From Cyanobacteria bacterium auto_48_18 (GTDB taxonomy: Bacteria > Cyanobacteriota > Vampirovibrionia > Obscuribacterales > Obscuribacteraceae), in NCBI GenBank assembly GCA_036170915.1, contig JAVHQC010000015.1, positions 1-64,000 on the forward strand: DNA of 64,000 nt. The letters are read 5' to 3'. The position numbers and the translations under genes are program-made. Under the pieces are notes generated by a model that saw nothing but the letters and a program-made list of their open reading frames with translations, did no database searches and had not been told where the DNA came from. Shown in pieces: positions 4,597-12,787 of this stretch; the stretch's first letter is position 1, and each line of letters begins with the position of its first letter.

Positions 4597-5994
4597 GTGT
4601 TCAAGAACGGAAGAAATTTTGACTTCATTATCCTCTCGGCCATGGTTGCGGTCTTTGTGTTTGCAATGACCTCTACAAGTAGCGGCGGCGCGCAGCAAAC
4701 TGCAAAGAGAGGAACTATGTCAGAAGAGCAGCAACAGACCGCATTGGCATTCATAAGTAGTCTCACGAAGGGCGAGTTCCAAGAATCGACCACATATTTC
4801 GATGCCACCATGAAAGCTGCCATGCCGGCTCAGATGGTTAGTCTCGTATGGCAGCAGCTAAATCAAAATGGTAAGTACGCAAAGACTCTTCCTCCGCGCG
4901 TGGAAATAAGCGGTGCTCACACTATCATTCTAACGCCCGCTGTTTTCGGTACAAAGACAGTTGATCTGAAGATTGTCTTCTCTGGAAGTGAAAAGATATC
5001 TGGATTTTTCATAGTGCCACATTCAGATGAATTTAAAGACGCACCATATGTGAAACCATCGACTTTTTCGGAAGAGAAGATCAATGTTGGCGCCGGGAAG
5101 TGGCAATTGGACGGGCACTTAGCTCTTCCTGCGGGAAAGGGACCGTTCCCTGCTGTGATCCTTGTACACGGCTCGGGGCCTAATGATGAAGATGAAACAG
5201 TCGGACCGAACAAGCCGTTCAGGGATCTTTCAGGCGGTCTTGCCTCCAGAGGTATTGCCGTTCTTCGCTATAACAAGCGCACTAAGCAACACGCAAGCAC
5301 TCTGTCTACCCAAGACTTAAAAACTATTACCGTCAAGGAGGAAACTCTGCAAGACGTGCTAGAAGCAGCCAAGGTTTTACGCGGCGATGCTAGGATCGTT
5401 TCGTCAGAAATTTTCGTTATAGGGCATAGTTTGGGAGGGATGCTAGTCCCAAGGATTGCAGCTCAAGATCAGGAGCTGCGCGGTCTAATCATGTTAGCTG
5501 GAGCAAATCAACCGCTTGAAGATGCGATGGTAATGCAGGTCGAGTACATAAATTCTCTTGGTGGTTCTCACTCAAGCGATGACAACAAGTTTCGACACTT
5601 ACTGGAAGAACGCGCGAAAATTAAAGCCCTAACGCAGAAAGATGCTGAGAATGGACCCCTAATATTAGGAGCGTATCCAGCATACTGGTTGGATCTTCGC
5701 GAGCATGATCCATTGCAAGAAATTGGAGAACTGAATAAACCCTTGTTGATTCTGCAGGGTGAGCGTGATTACCAGGTCACCGCTGATGGTGACTTTGAGC
5801 GGTGGAAGGCGGCGGTAGACAAAACTGGAAAAGCTAATCAGTGTCAATTTAAACTCTATCCTGGACTAAATCATCTCTTCATGAGCGGTTCTGGAAAATG
5901 CTCTCCGCAAGAATATGAAATACCATCCCATGTGGACGAAATGGTCATTGACGATATTAGTAAATGGATAAAGAACCAGTGTGTACGTGATTGA
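4597..5994 (+). CDS. Exported alpha/beta hydrolase (esterase/peptidase) with N-terminal DUF3887-like domain
   Basis: GGAGGAG SD before GTG; hydrophobic N-terminus; VHGSGPND, nucleophile GHSLGG, QGERDYQV and LNHLF motifs. Confidence 0.85.
   Translation: MFKNGRNFDFIILSAMVAVFVFAMTSTSSGGAQQTAKRGTMSEEQQQTALAFISSLTKGEFQESTTYFDATMKAAMPAQMVSLVWQQLNQNGKYAKTLPPRVEISGAHTIILTPAVFGTKTVDLKIVFSGSEKISGFFIVPHSDEFKDAPYVKPSTFSEEKINVGAGKWQLDGHLALPAGKGPFPAVILVHGSGPNDEDETVGPNKPFRDLSGGLASRGIAVLRYNKRTKQHASTLSTQDLKTITVKEETLQDVLEAAKVLRGDARIVSSEIFVIGHSLGGMLVPRIAAQDQELRGLIMLAGANQPLEDAMVMQVEYINSLGGSHSSDDNKFRHLLEERAKIKALTQKDAENGPLILGAYPAYWLDLREHDPLQEIGELNKPLLILQGERDYQVTADGDFERWKAAVDKTGKANQCQFKLYPGLNHLFMSGSGKCSPQEYEIPSHVDEMVIDDISKWIKNQCVRD
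5750..5983 (+). repeat. Repeat A, copy 1 (234 bp, 3' end of hydrolase gene)
   Basis: Matches 7466..7699 with 6 substitutions counted by eye and no indels. Confidence 0.95.
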
Positions 5995-6106: not shown

Positions 6107-7285
6107 ATGGATCCGAAGTCGTTCTTAAAGCAAGCGCCAGGCTCATTGAAGCAGATTGAACAGGGATGTTACGCGTTCTTGCCAAACTTACTACCGCCTG
6201 ACATAAAGCTTGATTGGGAACTTGTATCGCTAATCTCGGCGGCCAGTGCGGCTCTGGCAGAGCTTGCTGGAGCAACCAGTGCTTTGCCCAATCCGCATCT
6301 CCTAATTCGACCTTTCATCGGTAGAGAAGCCGTTCTTTCAAGCCGTATTGAAGGAACGCAGGCGTCACTGTCTGATGTTTTGCTTTTTCAAGAATCAGAG
6401 AACAGCTCGCCAGAGAACAATCGAGAAGACATTCTGGAAGTTCTAAATTACATTCATGCACTGGACTATGGGCTCAAAATGTTAGACGAGCTGCCACTTA
6501 GCATTAGATTCATGAGGAATTTACATGGGATTTTGATGAAAGGTGTCCGCGGCGAAAATCAGGCAGCTGGCGAATTGCGCCGTATTCAGAACTGGATAGG
6601 CGCTCCAGGATGTACGAAAAACAATGCCAGGTACGTGCCACCACCGGTTCCAGAAATGAAGCAAGCTTTAAATGATTTGGAGCTATATCTCAATGGAAAG
6701 GACAATTTGCCTGCATTGGTTCGCCTTGCAATAATTCATTATCAGTTTGAAGCAATTCACCCTTTCGTTGATGGAAACGGAAGAATTGGTCGGTTGTTGA
6801 TAACGTTGATACTTTGCAAAGAACAATTATTGCCACAGCCACTACTGTATTTGAGTGCATATTTTGAGAGTCACCGCCAGCAATACTACGACTTGCTTCT
6901 CTCTGTAAGCCAGGAGGGTAATTGGGGCGGGTGGCTATCATTTTTTTTGACAGGTATAATAGAGCAGTCCAAAGACTCTCTATTGCGATCGAAGAAGCTA
7001 GTGGATCTGCAGCATAGATACCGGACGACTCTTCAGTCGTTGCGATCATCCGGTTTGCAGCTTCAACTTTTGGATCATCTATTCGGTGCTCCGTATGTGC
7101 GTGTAAGTACGGTTGCTAATGCGCTGAGCATTACTGTCAGAGCGGCGCAGCTAAATATCGATAAGTTAGTTGAGCAGGGCATCCTCACTGAGCTGACAGG
7201 CGGAAAACGGAATAGAGTTTTTGCAGCAAGGGAAATTTTGAGAATTACAGAATCCGAAAAACTTTTGGACCACGAGCTAATGTAA
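6107..7285 (+). CDS. Fic/DOC family protein (class II, AMPylase-type) with C-terminal HTH
   Basis: Canonical HPFVDGNGRIGR Fic motif; N-terminal inhibitory SSRIEG motif; C-terminal winged-helix-like region. Confidence 0.92.
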   Translation: MDPKSFLKQAPGSLKQIEQGCYAFLPNLLPPDIKLDWELVSLISAASAALAELAGATSALPNPHLLIRPFIGREAVLSSRIEGTQASLSDVLLFQESENSSPENNREDILEVLNYIHALDYGLKMLDELPLSIRFMRNLHGILMKGVRGENQAAGELRRIQNWIGAPGCTKNNARYVPPPVPEMKQALNDLELYLNGKDNLPALVRLAIIHYQFEAIHPFVDGNGRIGRLLITLILCKEQLLPQPLLYLSAYFESHRQQYYDLLLSVSQEGNWGGWLSFFLTGIIEQSKDSLLRSKKLVDLQHRYRTTLQSLRSSGLQLQLLDHLFGAPYVRVSTVANALSITVRAAQLNIDKLVEQGILTELTGGKRNRVFAAREILRITESEKLLDHELM

Positions 7286-7454: not shown

Positions 7455-7465
7455 TCTTTTGTTTG

Positions 7466-7713
7466 TTCTGCAGGGTGAGCGTGATTACCAGGTCACCGCT
7501 GATGGTGACTTTGAGCGGTGGAAGGCGGCGGTAGACAAAACTGGAAAAGCTAATCAGTGTCAATTTAAACTCTATCCCGGCCTAAATCATCTCTTCATGA
7601 GCGGTTCTGGAAAATGCTCTCCGCAAGAATATGAGAGACCGTCCCATGTGGATGAAATGGTCATTGACGATATTAGTAAATGGATAAAGAACCAGTGTGG
7701 CCAAGTGAAATGA
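7466..7713 (+). pseudogene. Repeat A copy 2: duplicated 3' fragment of the alpha/beta hydrolase gene with a different C-terminus
   Basis: Encodes LQGERDYQV...WIKNQC like the hydrolase C-terminus, then GQVK-stop; lacks the nucleophile and an SD. Confidence 0.85.
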
Positions 7714-7747: not shown

Positions 7748-7954
7748 CTAGATCTCTTTATGTTTTGCCCACTTGCCCATTAGCTCGCAAGCTACTGCCA
7801 CCATATCTGGGTCGAATTGTTTTATGTACTCGTCATAAGATTTGAAGCGAGAGTCTGTTCTTAAGGCTTCAAGAATTTCGTCATGAGTTAGCCCGCTGGA
7901 CAGTAGCTCCTGAAGAGCGTCCTGATATTGCGCGAGTAGCGACTGCTTATGCAT
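7748..7954 (-). CDS. 68-aa helical protein, probable MNIO partner
   Basis: Start overlaps the DUF692 stop (ATGCATAA); helical LLAQYQDALQELL...FDPDMVAVACELMGKW pattern. Confidence 0.7.
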   Translation of the reverse strand: MHKQSLLAQYQDALQELLSSGLTHDEILEALRTDSRFKSYDEYIKQFDPDMVAVACELMGKWAKHKEI

Positions 7955-8831
7955 AGGAGAACTCCAAAATCTCTTCTATAGTTTCGAAGTCTTCGCGAAA
8001 TTCTTGTTGCGATTCTGGATCCGTCATGGTGTTGCCCAATCTCTCTAATATTACAAATTCAATATTCGGACAGAGCTTTGGCGCCAGAGCTGCAAGATTG
8101 AAAACCTCTTGTGGCACCCCATCATCATGAGTATCTCGTCGCACCGCAGCTCGGCTGCCAGATACCGATGCGCTCCAAGATCCACCGGACAAATGCAATT
8201 CGCGAACCTTGGACAGTGGATATGAGTTTAGCAGTTCAAGTTCTGGTACGCCAAAATTCGCTACTTGGCAGTAAATATTGTGTAAGTCTAATAGAAGAAA
8301 ACCATCGACAGCTGTAATTAGCTGATCAATAAAATCACCTTGCCGTTTAACATCTTCAAGACCAAATGCAAAGGCCAAATTTTCAAGCCCAACTGTACAT
8401 TGGGTTGCATCTGTGTACCGCTTCAGCATCTCCTTGCCAATGTGAAGCGACTCAGCGTTCATTGGTACTGCCAGCGGTGCGCCGTGAGCAATGGGGCCTG
8501 CTTCCGAAAAGCCAAAATGTTCTGATGCATGAACATACTTTCGACTTTTAAATTCTTGCTGCGTATATGCTAGCCATGCTTCCTGCCTTTCTGAAAACTG
8601 CGCTGAAAGCGGCGATAGATTAACACCGTGCCCGGTGAGCGCATTTGCTTCGCTGTACTTGTTGAGCAATTCGCTGCACCAGGGTTCGACTGCGACGCCG
8701 TTTAGCGGCAGATCAAAACTCCATTCGAGAGCATTTACTTTGTTGCTCTGAAACAATTCATCAGTAGCTTGCCGAAAATCATCGGTCGGCATCAGCGACA
8801 GTCCGAGCTTAGGTTTTTTGCTATTTGACAT
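7947..8831 (-). CDS. DUF692 family multinuclear non-heme iron-dependent oxidative enzyme (MNIO; MbnB/TglH/ChrH family), 294 aa
   Basis: Family motifs in order: HGVNLS, SEHFGF, LENL, LLLDLHNIY, ELHLSGG, DTHD, VILER; ATG at 8831 overlaps the upstream stop (TAATG). Confidence 0.92.
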   Translation of the reverse strand: MSNSKKPKLGLSLMPTDDFRQATDELFQSNKVNALEWSFDLPLNGVAVEPWCSELLNKYSEANALTGHGVNLSPLSAQFSERQEAWLAYTQQEFKSRKYVHASEHFGFSEAGPIAHGAPLAVPMNAESLHIGKEMLKRYTDATQCTVGLENLAFAFGLEDVKRQGDFIDQLITAVDGFLLLDLHNIYCQVANFGVPELELLNSYPLSKVRELHLSGGSWSASVSGSRAAVRRDTHDDGVPQEVFNLAALAPKLCPNIEFVILERLGNTMTDPESQQEFREDFETIEEILEFSYA

Positions 8832-9823
8832 TAGCCCATGCCGCATGATCCCGAGAAAACACTTACTGTTACCCACCAAATAAGGCCTCCACACCTACCA
8901 TGCTGTGGATAAAGAATCTTTTCGTCTTTGCTGTCGACTAATTTGAACAAAGCTTGCTTTTCGCTCTCTGCCTTTTCCACTTTCCCGAGTTTCATATACC
9001 AGAGCGCCAAGTCTCTATGCACCTTCCGCCTCACGTGATCGCCTGGTAACAATCGGTCCACAATCGCAGCGGCTCTTAGCTTCAATTTTTCACTTTCTTT
9101 AAATTCGTTTTCTGTAAAAAGGTTGATAGTTGCAATCTGCTGTGATTGATGGTCGGCTATGTGAATAGGAATAAGACCATAAGCCATCGAATTTAAAATT
9201 GAAGAAACGGCGTAGATTTGTTCACATTCAACAGATGAGCCCGTTTCAGCGGCGTAGAAGGCTGTTTCTAGCACTTTATCGCATTTCTTCATCTCATCAA
9301 AGTTGCCTAACCGCTTATAAAGGCGCGAAGCGATGAAGTACATGTTTAACTTTGCAAACGTGCCTGAAACATTGTCTAGGTGGGTCACTACCTGATGCAG
9401 AGCTTCAGTTGCAAGAACTAAATTTTCAGCTGATATCTCTTGAATGCCAGAATGTAACTCTGTTTTTGGTTTAGCGCTACTGGCTGCCCGTGCTTCAAAA
9501 GAAGCTTGGTTTGCCCACGAGCCCAATTCGTTGTGCCATCTTGAACTGGGCTTGAAGTGTGTTGGTGCACTAATAATATTTGCAAAAGCCGCTTCAGTCT
9601 TGGTCCTATCACCCCCTTTGAGATAACTTCTCGCTAGGCTGAGCAGGCTGTAAGCGCGGATCTCTGGCGAAATTGTTGTGCTATTTGCCAGTTGCTCTAT
9701 TATCGAATCGGTCGATTGCGTTTCGCTTTCAGAAAAAACAGGCAGCTGTGTATTTAAAACTCCGCTTGCAAAAATTATTGCCAGCAGTGCTTTTTTTCGC
9801 TTTAGTTCTCTTATCTGTGTCAA
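8831..9823 (-). CDS. Exported helical protein with C-terminal CGMG, paralogue 3 (putative MNIO substrate)
   Basis: TTG start with AAGGTG SD; signal peptide; shared SILNSMAYGLIP and DHVRRKVHRDLALWY motifs; ends CGGLIWWVTVSVFSGSCGMG. Confidence 0.85.
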   Translation of the reverse strand: MTQIRELKRKKALLAIIFASGVLNTQLPVFSESETQSTDSIIEQLANSTTISPEIRAYSLLSLARSYLKGGDRTKTEAAFANIISAPTHFKPSSRWHNELGSWANQASFEARAASSAKPKTELHSGIQEISAENLVLATEALHQVVTHLDNVSGTFAKLNMYFIASRLYKRLGNFDEMKKCDKVLETAFYAAETGSSVECEQIYAVSSILNSMAYGLIPIHIADHQSQQIATINLFTENEFKESEKLKLRAAAIVDRLLPGDHVRRKVHRDLALWYMKLGKVEKAESEKQALFKLVDSKDEKILYPQHGRCGGLIWWVTVSVFSGSCGMG

Positions 9824-9849
9824 GACTGTCGCACCTTAATTTCCCTGTC

Positions 9850-10839
9850 CTAGCCCATACCGCACAGCATTGTTGACCGTCCTCTGCTTTTTTCCCACCA
9901 AACAAGCTGACCGCATCCAACCGATTGGGGATAAAGAATAGCGTCGTCCTCAATACCGACCAGTTCAAATAGAATCTGCTTTTGTTTTTCAGCAGCTTGC
10001 AATTTGCCAAGTTCTGCGTACCAGAGTGCTAAATCACGGTGAACTTTTCTTCTCACATGATCGGTTGCAGGCAGGCGGTCAGCGTAGGCGACCGCTTTTA
10101 GTTTGAGTTGTTCGCATGCTTTGAAATCGTCTTGTGTAAAGGGTTTCACATGTGATTTATGCGATATGAATTGGTCATCTATTCGCAGAGGAATTAGGCC
10201 GTAAGCCATCGAATTTAAGATTGAAGTGGCTGCTCTAATCTTTTCGTTGTCTTGGGGTGAATTCTCGTCAAATGCATTAGCCAAAACTTTATTACACTTC
10301 CGTAGGCCATCAATATTTCCCAATCTTTGATAAAGGCGCGAGGCTATGAAGTACATACTTAAACTTGTAAACTTATCAGATACCATCTCCACTTGCGTCA
10401 AAGCTTCTTCTAGGGCCCTATTTGCAAGGCCTTCTTCTTCTTCTCGAGGTGTAGCCGTTAGACCCGACTTAATCTCTGCTTTTACTTTGACACCGTGATT
10501 GGCGGAGGGGCCTTCTAATGCCGCCCCGTCAGCCCACGAAACTAGCATGTTCTGCCAGTTCTTGGGTGACATACGCATGTCTAAGTGTCTGACATTGGGC
10601 CCGAATTGTGCTTCCGTTTTAGCTTTGCCATCGGCAATATAGCTTCTTGCAAGGGCAATTAAGTGAAACGCTCGAATCTCCGGCGTTGCAGATGGGTCAT
10701 TTGCAATGGCCTGTATAACTGTACTTTGAGGTTTGGAGTTTTTTTCAGCAAGTGCCGGCACGTGCGAATTGGCCACACTACCTGCAAAAAATATGGCTAG
10801 AAGTGCTTCTTTTCGTTTTGGTTCTTTTGACGGTGTCAA
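9850..10839 (-). CDS. Exported helical protein with C-terminal CGMG, paralogue 2 (putative MNIO substrate)
   Basis: TTG start; signal peptide ending ALA-E; same shared motifs; ends CGQLVWWEKSRGRSTMLCGMG. Confidence 0.85.
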   Translation of the reverse strand: MTPSKEPKRKEALLAIFFAGSVANSHVPALAEKNSKPQSTVIQAIANDPSATPEIRAFHLIALARSYIADGKAKTEAQFGPNVRHLDMRMSPKNWQNMLVSWADGAALEGPSANHGVKVKAEIKSGLTATPREEEEGLANRALEEALTQVEMVSDKFTSLSMYFIASRLYQRLGNIDGLRKCNKVLANAFDENSPQDNEKIRAATSILNSMAYGLIPLRIDDQFISHKSHVKPFTQDDFKACEQLKLKAVAYADRLPATDHVRRKVHRDLALWYAELGKLQAAEKQKQILFELVGIEDDAILYPQSVGCGQLVWWEKSRGRSTMLCGMG

Positions 10840-10866
10840 GATCGTCTCACTTCAATCTCACTTTGC

Positions 10867-11865
10867 TTAGCCCATGCCGCATGAGAATTCACGACCTAGC
10901 CCTGGCTGAGCCTTTTCCCACCAGACCAATTGACCGCATCCTCTGATTTGCGGAATGAGTAAGCTATCATCCTTGGCGCCAACCAATTCGAACAAAACCT
11001 GTTTTTCTCTTTCGGCGCTCTCCGATTTTCCAAGCTCCAAATACCAAAGCGCCAGATCTCGGTGCGCTTTCCTTCTCACGTGATCTGTATGGGCTAGGCG
11101 GTCTGCGAAGGCCGCTGCTCTGAGTTTTAGTTCTTCGCTTGCTTTGAAATCGGCTTCAGTAAAGGGCTTCAATGGTTTCTTTGGCTCCTGTTGATAGTCA
11201 GCTATACGAAGCGGAATAAAACCGTAAGCCATCGAGTTTAAAATTGACGCAGTTGCTTTTATTTGTTCGGAGTCTACAGATGAATTCTTCTCAGATGCCT
11301 GGAAAGCTTCTTCCAAAATTTTGCGGCATTGAAGCATTCCATCAGTGTTACCTAGCTTTTGATACAGACGTGAAGCCATAAAAGTAAAATGCAATTTTGT
11401 AAATATGTCAGGTGAACTGTCAATTAGCGCAAGTGCCTCTTTAATTGCTGAATTAGTGAGACTTGACTCTTCCGCAGCCATTGGCTGCGTAGCCGGCTTC
11501 GTTTGTGCCTTTGTTTTGCCGTAATCTGCATCGCGAGCATCTAAAGAAATTTGTTCAGCCCACGAGACCACGAGCTGATTAAAGTTTTTGGGATACCAAC
11601 TTCTGCTATTTACCACTGGTCCGAATTGCGCTTCCATTTGAGCCTTGCTGCTACCGTTTAGCAAATGATTTGCCACGATGAATAAATAAAGCGCCCTCAT
11701 TTCCGGTTTCGCCTGTGAGTGATTTGTAAGCTGTTGCACAATGGACTCAGTCGACTCAACATTTCGTTCGGATGCCGTCGCCTGATCTGAGCCAATCACA
11801 CTCGCGGCAAAAATTACAGCCAGTAAAGCTTTTCTTCGCAAGAGATTGGAAAATTGGGGTGTCAA
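10867..11865 (-). CDS. Exported helical protein with C-terminal CGMG, paralogue 1 (putative MNIO substrate)
   Basis: TTG start with AAGGGAG SD; signal peptide LRRKALLAVIFAAS...ATA; ends CGQLVWWEKAQPGLGREFSCGMG. Confidence 0.85.
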   Translation of the reverse strand: MTPQFSNLLRRKALLAVIFAASVIGSDQATASERNVESTESIVQQLTNHSQAKPEMRALYLFIVANHLLNGSSKAQMEAQFGPVVNSRSWYPKNFNQLVVSWAEQISLDARDADYGKTKAQTKPATQPMAAEESSLTNSAIKEALALIDSSPDIFTKLHFTFMASRLYQKLGNTDGMLQCRKILEEAFQASEKNSSVDSEQIKATASILNSMAYGFIPLRIADYQQEPKKPLKPFTEADFKASEELKLRAAAFADRLAHTDHVRRKAHRDLALWYLELGKSESAEREKQVLFELVGAKDDSLLIPQIRGCGQLVWWEKAQPGLGREFSCGMG

Positions 11866-12070: not shown

Positions 12071-12787
12071 GTGGATCGAAAGTTCACAGAAAATATGATG
12101 AAGCATATAGCCGACTTCGAGCGGCGACATGGTCGTGTGCCGACTATCCGAGAGTTGGCCCAAGAGTTGAGGGTAAGTACGTCTGGATTGAGAGTCGCAA
12201 TAGGAAAGAACTTGGGACAAGATAAAGTGGATGGTACTTCGGCTTTCCACACTAGCCTTCAGGAAATGTTGTTAGGTAACCGAAATTACAAAAGCCCTCT
12301 GGATATGGACTGGGGGTTGGCTAAGTATCGCGAGATTTTGGTCAGGAACCTCGACGGAACTGAACTTGGTCTGATGCAGACGAAGTTTGCTTTACAGATG
12401 GCAAAAGAACGAGGCCTGGTCCTCTATCCCTTGGACCCGTGCGCCGATCCGCCGGTGGCGATGTTTGTTGACTGTAACAGCCAACAGCAAGATATGTTCC
12501 AAAAACTTGTCCAGAGGCGTGAGGCAAGTAAAAAAGTTAAAGAACTTAAATTACAAATTAGCGCTAACGATTTTCAGACCAAACTTATCACCGCGAAGAA
12601 AGTTCTTGAGAAAGGCGATGAGTTGAGACTCGCTATAAGTCTCAAAAAGAACGAGCTCGATAAAGCAGACATTGCAGTGGCGCTACTGAATCAATTTGCC
12701 ACAGATTTAGGGGAAATAGCAGTGTGGACTGAAGAGCCAAAACTGGAAGGCAAAATTGTTGCAATGAATTTATTTTCCGCCCTTTGA
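12071..12787 (+). CDS. Divergent translation initiation factor IF-3-like protein with an extra N-terminal HTH domain
   Basis: C-terminal ~155 aa follow IF3 (REILVRNLDGTELGLM, ADPPVA, VKELKL, NDFQTKL, LEKGD, EEPKLEGK); N-terminus HGRVPTIRELAQELRVS is HTH-like. Confidence 0.75.
   Translation: MDRKFTENMMKHIADFERRHGRVPTIRELAQELRVSTSGLRVAIGKNLGQDKVDGTSAFHTSLQEMLLGNRNYKSPLDMDWGLAKYREILVRNLDGTELGLMQTKFALQMAKERGLVLYPLDPCADPPVAMFVDCNSQQQDMFQKLVQRREASKKVKELKLQISANDFQTKLITAKKVLEKGDELRLAISLKKNELDKADIAVALLNQFATDLGEIAVWTEEPKLEGKIVAMNLFSAL

Follow-up and report, generated by a model that had tools for sequence, protein, structure and literature searches.

The window analysed here is a stretch of 64,000 nucleotides of contig JAVHQC010000015.1 from Cyanobacteria bacterium auto_48_18, a non-photosynthetic relative of the cyanobacteria, and its subject is an operon of five open reading frames (ORFs) that run in the same direction on the minus strand, from 11865 to 7748. 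Three large paralogues, A1, A2 and A3, are followed by a multinuclear non-heme iron oxidase (MNIO; DUF692) and a 68-residue protein. The coordinates leave gaps of 27 and 26 bp between A1 and A2 and between A2 and A3, and the TAATG and ATGCATAA overlaps that join the last three genes are seen directly in the sequence. A sequence-only reading of this DNA had described five co-directional genes with these gaps and overlaps, three paralogues of ~330 residues that all end in C-G-M-G-stop and a DUF692 enzyme; the ORF coordinates and direct reading, an alignment of A1, A2 and A3, and the Pfam match reported below bear this out. The operon is very likely a protein-modifying operon of the ChrH subfamily, of the type of the published mel cluster (PMC13056109). 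Its genes are as follows.

10867..11865, minus strand: paralogue A1, 332 amino acids (ORF, paralogue alignment, family profile match with E 8e-127); cysteines at end-relative positions -23 and -4.
9850..10839, minus strand: paralogue A2, 329 amino acids (ORF, alignment, family profile, AlphaFold2 model).
8831..9823, minus strand: paralogue A3, 330 amino acids (ORF, alignment, family profile); stop and MNIO start overlap in TAATG.
7947..8831, minus strand: MelH-like MNIO, 294 amino acids from the ATG at 8831 (PF05114, MNIO_ChrH, invariant columns).
7748..7954, minus strand: MelHc-like 68-residue protein (identity to the C-termini of fused MNIOs); start and MNIO stop overlap in ATGCATAA.

The 294-residue enzyme matched PF05114 (MbnB_TglH_ChrH) with E 9.1e-27 and 94.4 bits against a cut-off of 25, and a PF05114 search of its own genome gave 94.1 bits at the operon site. 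An alternative start at an upstream GTG gives a protein of 315 residues (7947-8894). The best NCBIfam family was MNIO_ChrH (NF050165; E 1e-96, 324.2 bits), and the other MNIO families scored far lower, with BufB next at 77.9 bits, then HvfB at 65.4, ApyH at 27.9 and MbnB at 12.1, in agreement with the relation to ChrH that had been proposed from the sequence. The equivalog cut-off of MNIO_ChrH (600 bits) is not reached by the window enzyme, fused relatives score 318-337 bits, and the match covers profile positions 1-285 of 363. Thus, the enzyme is a ChrH-subfamily core without the ChrH C-terminal domain, and by these scores it is a relative within the subfamily, not a ChrH equivalog. Residues H68, H101, H105, E150, D182, H184, N185, H213, D233, H235 and E263 are invariant in all 21 aligned homologues, D233 and H235 falling within an R-R-D-T-H-D-D stretch, and from their positions these His, Asp, Glu and Asn residues are candidate metal ligands. 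The best 120 of 2663 matches in the homologue search were unnamed or of Obscuribacterales type, with neither ChrH nor DybH named among them, and the profile scores given above serve to place the enzyme relative to ChrH.

The ChrH C-terminal helical domain (~7.8 kDa) is supplied in trans by the 68-residue ORF. This ORF shares 63% identity with residues 325-384 of P0079, a fused MNIO of 384 residues; a search of longer proteins gave two PF05114 proteins, of 384 and 409 residues, whose C-termini are 63-64% identical to it, and residues 322-379 of a fused 386-residue MNIO in the same genome are 45% identical. On the ChrH profile, which has 363 positions, these fused MNIOs align as far as position 360. 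Alone, the 68-residue protein matched no NCBIfam family, and a sub-threshold Pfam match, HNF-1_N, was rejected as meaningless. The sequence-only reading had listed this ORF correctly and left its role unexplained; from the C-terminal identity it is the counterpart of MelHc, the ChrH C-terminal domain split off as a gene of its own, and an ORF of this kind follows the MNIO gene at 18 of the 21 related loci described below.

The paralogues are related to each other (A2 is 51% and A3 47% identical to A1) and share an upstream C-G-x-L-[VI]-W-W block. None of the three matched an NCBIfam family, and Pfam gave only sub-threshold matches to tetratricopeptide repeats (TPRs), TPR_12 in the case of A2. 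An AlphaFold2 model of A2 built from 62 relatives had a mean predicted local distance difference test score (pLDDT) of 85.4 and a predicted template modelling score of 0.81. It is all-helical over residues 41-302, followed by a predicted beta-hairpin at 305-313 whose strands are 305-308 and 311-313 and whose turn carries Cys309; the final block of residues after the hairpin is of low confidence (pLDDT 57). Foldseek comparison of this model with the PDB gave nothing at E <= 0.001, generic TPR-like repeats being best at E 0.013. The size of the window proteins (329-332 residues) fits the 30-40 kDa precursor class described for Cyanobacteria (see below), and the helical-repeat model with its weak TPR matches may do so too. 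Read by eye, the N-termini are signal-like, with a basic stretch, 12-13 hydrophobic residues and then A-x-A or similar: A1 has a basic n-region, 13 hydrophobic residues and A-T-A before the guessed cut, and A2 has A-L-A before its guessed cut. No lipobox cysteine was seen in the window proteins. The features within the paralogues are these.

11773..11865, minus strand: A1 putative Sec/signal-peptidase-I signal peptide, approximately residues 1-31 (translation read by eye).
10747..10839, minus strand: A2 putative signal peptide, approximately residues 1-31 (translation read by eye; block of the first 40 residues at pLDDT 48-55).
9731..9823, minus strand: A3 putative signal peptide, approximately residues 1-31 (translation read by eye).
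10870..10938, minus strand: A1 candidate modification tail, Cys310...Cys329-Gly-Met-Gly, spacing 19 (alignment, tail comparison).
9853..9915, minus strand: A2 candidate modification tail, Cys309...Cys326-Gly-Met-Gly, spacing 17 (alignment, model; residues 307-311 and 326 in the predicted enzyme interface).
8834..8893, minus strand: A3 candidate modification tail, Cys311...Cys327-Gly-Met-Gly, spacing 16 (alignment, tail comparison).

The three tails end FSCGMG, MLCGMG and GSCGMG, and the first cysteine of CPxCGxG (position -3, counted from the cysteine of CGxG) is absent. The partner cysteine lies 19, 17 and 16 residues upstream in A1, A2 and A3, on the hairpin, and is followed by W-W. The CGMG end had been equated in the sequence-only reading with the CPACGMG of ChrA; the terminal CGMG stands, but the ring-closing first cysteine is missing from the tail.

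ChrH-subfamily clusters of Cyanobacteria that encode TPR precursor proteins of 30-40 kDa have been reported (PMC13056109; PNAS 2026). The mel cluster of that paper, from a Candidatus Melainabacteria metagenome-assembled genome (MAG), encodes the 34-kDa MelA1, predicted to be cleaved by signal peptidase I and described as a dimer by size-exclusion chromatography and AlphaFold 3, together with MelH and, on a gene of its own, the C-terminal domain of ChrH, MelHc. A modification of -4 Da on MelA1 is reported only when MelH and MelHc are present together. The window operon comes from the same lineage (its relatives are from Candidatus Obscuribacterales MAGs) and has the same composition: precursors of the same size class, TPR-like and with a putative signal, an MNIO without the C-terminal domain, that domain encoded as a second gene, and no protease or transporter. 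Since these are the parts of a published cluster, the earlier statement that no system with this architecture had been described no longer holds. The accompanying proposal of a modified protein, and not a released peptide, as the possible product is in line with the published account and with our neighbourhood analysis. The difference lies in the tail, as MelA1 is reported with CPACGMG, and CPxCGxG is described as conserved across the subfamily, whereas the window proteins have xCGMG with the partner cysteine 16-19 residues upstream.

The chemistry to be expected can be taken from ChrA/ChrH (chryseobasin) and DybA/DybH (DAG-RiPP) of Bacteroidota, which share with the window the best-matching enzyme family and the terminal C-G-M-G. 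In these systems a four-electron oxidation is reported to be followed by hydantoin formation and thiol capture, and the same may hold in the window. They differ in that their substrates are CPxCGxG peptides of 50-80 residues, a trait the window proteins lack, and in that their enzymes are single fused proteins; DybA is moreover lipidated. For DybH, the second cysteine of CPACGMG is reported to be oxidised first, to a thioaldehyde; the hydantoin comes next, and the first cysteine closes the ring last (10.64898/2026.10.27.762324). In the DybA C44A variant the hydantoin and a -4 Da intermediate still form, and any thiol can make the capture, a glutathione adduct being described both in Escherichia coli and in vitro (10.64898/2026.10.27.762324). 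A more distant comparison is with the bufferins (BufA/BufB/BufC) and oxazolins (HvfA/HvfB/HvfC), which are likewise reported to have MNIO-modified cysteines and precursors with Sec signals, some MNIO substrates being of protein size (PMC12452194). These differ from the window in their reported thiooxazole or oxazolone-thioamide chemistry, their DUF2063-type partners and their other cysteine motifs, and the BufB and HvfB profiles gave the window enzyme 78 and 65 bits only.

A scan of species-representative genomes found 21 loci, nearly all in MAGs of Candidatus Obscuribacterales/Obscuribacteraceae. At 18 of these, one to six paralogues are followed by the MNIO and then by the small ORF on a single strand; two of the three exceptions, L022 and L023, are isolated additional copies, their genomes having a full cluster as well (L019 and L021). 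No other neighbour family is common to more than seven loci. The absence of a protease or transporter from the operon, noted earlier, was confirmed, and neither is conserved beside the cluster in the neighbourhood comparison. The number of paralogues per locus, one to six, suggests secreted binding proteins that have diversified while keeping one modified end in common. In a class sample of 201 genomes, 22 had a match, the own genome included, with the strong matches confined to a single family (18 of its 47 genomes, leaving the own genome out); among the other genomes of the window's genus, two of six matched. Given this limited spread in both family and genus, the operon is a patchy accessory system. 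Decayed copies were also encountered: in L010 (12297-12562) the small ORF is followed downstream by two short ORFs that are paralogue fragments, and a paralogue copy with an internal TAG lies at G190:C3:1110972-1111916.

To define the tail, a census was made of 75 homologues, the best 150 of 238 matches at E <= 0.001 and the ORFs of the loci, giving 259 sequences (256 unique) whose tails were anchored on an L-F-x-L-V-G block. Of these, 232 of 256 were both anchored and CGxG-ending, or 232 of the 238 that could be anchored; six anchored sequences lacked CGxG, and the 18 unanchored ones were fragments, four type II proteins (defined below) and a few divergent tails. Together with the gene order repeated at 18 of 21 loci, this shows that the pattern first noticed in the window is not a chance one. 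A second tail cysteine was present in all 232 of the anchored CGxG-ending relatives, and the nearest cysteine-to-cysteine spacing was 17 in 153 of them, 18 in 28, 16 in 16, 19 in 11 and 20 in six, falling between 15 and 22 in 218. One or a few cases each were seen at spacings of 2, 3, 4, 6, 9, 12, 15, 21, 22, 27 and 29.

Two types of tail can be distinguished. Type I, that of the window, has the form ..[YF]PQxxxCGxxxWW, about 10 variable residues and then CG[MRL]G. Type II, ..FPPxxxCPxCG[MR]G, was found in seven paralogues of greater divergence (profile E 1e-15 to 1e-33) at loci L005, L006 and L015, where type II copies lie upstream of type I copies with one MNIO/Hc pair per locus, the MNIOs being 77-78% identical to that of the window. 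In a profile alignment (hmmalign) of 228 sequences of at least 280 residues, 218 have Cys in the hairpin column, and the first cysteine of the type II CPxC falls in this same column. Type I therefore resembles type II with an insertion of ~14 residues, W-W included, between the two cysteines. The range between the canonical spacing of 3 and the common 17 is filled by intermediate spacings: 4 in P0204 (CPGMCGLG), 6 in a paralogue at L006 3266-4279 (HGCGNGRFCGMG), 9 in P0114, about 10 in P0203 (by eye, unanchored) and 12 in P0198. Across the sequences collected, C-x(14-21)-C-G-x-G is thus the common form in this family of putative protein substrates. Wide-spaced tails or ring-size variants were not found described in the text consulted from the ChrH/DybH papers, supplements aside. 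MelA1 itself is presumably of type II; the reported mass of its LysC fragment, 1388.62, matched none of the C-terminal fragments of the proteins collected here, the nearest being a type II tail at 1383.63.

The two cysteines also appear to be coupled in evolution. In P0025 and P0117 the hairpin position is Asn and a new cysteine has appeared at -3 (CLGCGMG and CFGCGMG). Conversely, P0066, P0181 and the L018 protein have lost both the CGxG end and the hairpin cysteine (His, Ser and His, respectively, at the hairpin position). The upstream and downstream neighbours of L018 are common to five cluster-bearing loci, and between positions 9022 and 9143 of L018 lies an enzyme relic in which MNIO residues 7-36 (87% identity) abut Hc residues 57-66. 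L018 is thus a locus where the enzyme pair was deleted beside a paralogue that lost both tail cysteines. Since such events are few and the sequences related, they make a coupling of the two cysteines suggestive and do not amount to statistics. Gene content, homologies, conservation of the cluster and this evolutionary coupling are all observed in the window and its relatives.

Prediction of a complex of MNIO, Hc and A2 (residues 36-329) gave a score of 0.64, against 0.00 for the best of three controls. In reference sets, 116 of 157 solved complexes and two of 215 mismatched pairs came up to this mark, a guide that holds only roughly for this run of three chains with its own alignments. Contacts agreed to at least 60% between runs, and the pLDDT of the partner was at least 77. 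The confident part of the predicted interface joins MNIO loop 218-229 to substrate helices at ~58-105, and includes substrate residues 307-311 and 326. On the enzyme side, predicted interface residues 14, 16, 190-194, 237-241 and 265-268 are sequence neighbours of the invariant H184, H235 and E263. The prediction supports, but does not demonstrate, binding and a pose with both cysteines near the enzyme. A PDB sequence search found just two distant MNIO chains, so a memory of a like complex is unlikely. The cluster linkage, the A2 model, the tail census and this prediction together support as likely the earlier proposal that large, signal-bearing, TPR-like proteins are the MNIO substrates.

Because the first cysteine of DybA closes the ring last, the best reading of the window is a Mel-type system that makes a ring of ~18 residues. 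We infer modification of the type I tail, ring closure by the hairpin cysteine and export, in the following way. Three pre-proteins would be made, each with a Sec-type signal-like N-terminus and a TPR-like helical body. In the cytoplasm the 294-residue MNIO and the 68-residue protein would bind the folded body, and the cysteine of the terminal C-G-M-G would be oxidised by four electrons from thiol to thioaldehyde. A backbone rearrangement with Gly-Met-Gly, as published for CPACGMG substrates, would then give a hydantoin. The cysteine at the hairpin tip, 16-19 residues upstream, would close the ring last, in place of the absent -3 cysteine, and, ahead of export, the ring of ~18 residues would staple the mobile tail at the C-terminus to the folded domain. 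As the enzyme lacks a signal peptide, modification must come before export. By analogy, type I tails may be regarded as natural counterparts of DybA C44A, with the addition of a conserved hairpin cysteine nearby. We give this whole explanation, ring closure by the hairpin cysteine included, a probability of about 0.5.

Several points weigh against it. Recognition of a folded body and a loop of ~18 residues sit uneasily with the export of unfolded chains by Sec, whatever tolerance SecY has for such loops, a difficulty that applies equally to MelA1, and the signal peptides of A1-A3 were read by eye. MelA1, the sole protein substrate reported as tested, is given a CPACGMG end and not a type I tail. 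The census sequences are related, so the figure of 232 of 232 overstates the independent support; compensation was seen in two representatives that are probably one lineage, and joint loss in two or three lineages. The 78-residue fragment P0208 keeps the hairpin cysteine without a CGxG end, whilst the fragment P0206, which ends CACGMA and has Met at the hairpin position, is a counter-example or a limit. Finally, a third cysteine, in column 182, is present in 199 of 228 sequences; those that lost the hairpin cysteine retain it, and type II lacks it. From this distribution it seems independent of the hairpin cysteine. A disulfide between column 182 and the hairpin was set aside, as column 182 stays Cys in the hairpin-less P0025, P0117, P0066 and L018 and is Tyr in 18 sequences.

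The main alternative, which we consider rather unlikely, is that no intramolecular ring forms and that the oxidised C-terminus, with its hydantoin and episulfide-type intermediate, reacts with a thiol or other nucleophile from outside, such as a small thiol, a cell-envelope component or another protein, the hairpin cysteine serving for metal binding with the new thiol or as a redox switch. DybA C44A, a mimic of a tail that lacks the first cysteine, is indeed reported to form a glutathione adduct (10.64898/2026.10.27.762324), the stretch between the two cysteines differs among relatives both in sequence and in length (spacing 15-29), and the tail is of low confidence in the A2 model. What such capture leaves unexplained is why P0025 and P0117 gained a -3 cysteine exactly where the hairpin cysteine was lost, why both cysteines disappeared jointly from P0066, P0181 and L018, and why the hairpin cysteine shares a column with the CPxC cysteine. 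These same couplings would suit a cross-link between two chains as well as a ring within one: the hairpin cysteine of one subunit could capture the oxidised C-terminus of the other to give a covalent dimer, and MelA1 is reported to be a dimer by size-exclusion chromatography and AlphaFold 3 (PMC13056109). We hold this to be improbable, as canonical substrates are reported to close the ring within one chain and in the predicted complex the hairpin and the Cys326 that lie at the enzyme belong to a single chain.

It is less probable still that type I proteins are not substrates at all, with only type II being modified and CGMG and the hairpin cysteine forming a disulfide or structural motif after export. 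Modification has been reported for a CPACGMG protein only, in a paper that calls CPxCGxG conserved across the subfamily (PMC13056109). However, non-type-II tails are the only ones in the window and at 15 of the 18 loci that have the enzyme, so that the enzyme would be without a substrate there. The very end of the protein has kept C-G-x-G in 232 of 238 anchored sequences, deletion of the enzyme at L018 coincides with the loss of both cysteines, and the predicted complex passes its controls.

The architecture of the operon is thus already in print and its value as a discovery has gone. What the window adds is a member with a displaced partner cysteine, and this displaced form is the majority in the protein family. 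If the first cysteine only closes the ring and any thiol can substitute, the natural tails could test the reach of the last step and show whether MNIO chemistry staples folded proteins; the ring, if it forms, would be of ~18 residues, far larger than the canonical one, and would covalently join the C-terminus to the folded body. We propose, with somewhat less than even confidence, that most protein substrates of the ChrH-type enzymes of Melainabacteria have tails with the first cysteine displaced, and that the same enzyme makes graded ring sizes up to ~18 residues, which would be a new intramolecular cross-link in proteins.

The own genome holds exactly three paralogues, those in the operon, and three MNIOs in total. 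One of the other MNIOs belongs to a second ChrH-type system, outside the window at ~192.7-194.2 kb of contig C15 (L028 8684-10157), where a 101-residue precursor with a signal-like N-terminus and the end DPCPACGRG is directly followed by the fused 386-residue MNIO. Its enzyme is related to that of the window (phmmer E 1.8e-76), but it is fused and its precursor is a canonical short peptide; thus, the peptide form and the protein form coexist in this genome. The third MNIO (L001, contig C16 136119-136904) is the best PF05114 match in the genome, at 348 bits, and is distant from the window enzyme (phmmer E 1e-10).

A promoter and terminator scan gave three promoter-like sites, against 6.2 expected from shuffling, and five terminator-like sites, against 5.5 expected, and is uninformative. 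Among sequencing runs, no RNA data set containing this DNA was listed; the one run that contains it is a groundwater metagenome, from which the DNA may derive. Divergent from the operon, on the plus strand at 12071-12787, lies an IF3-like gene with IF3_N and IF3_C domains, whose protein has an extra N-terminal stretch of ~85 residues with a weak match to a GntR-type helix-turn-helix. Beyond the 3' end of the operon, a direct repeat of 241 nucleotides at 97% identity occurs at window positions 5743-5983 and 7459-7699. The 3' end of an alpha/beta-hydrolase gene (4597-5994) is duplicated beyond a Fic-family gene at 6107-7285 (Fic_N and Fic domains), and the duplicated end forms a fragment ORF of 84 residues (7459-7713). 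From this arrangement it looks as if an insertion or duplication brought the Fic gene beside the 3' end of the operon.

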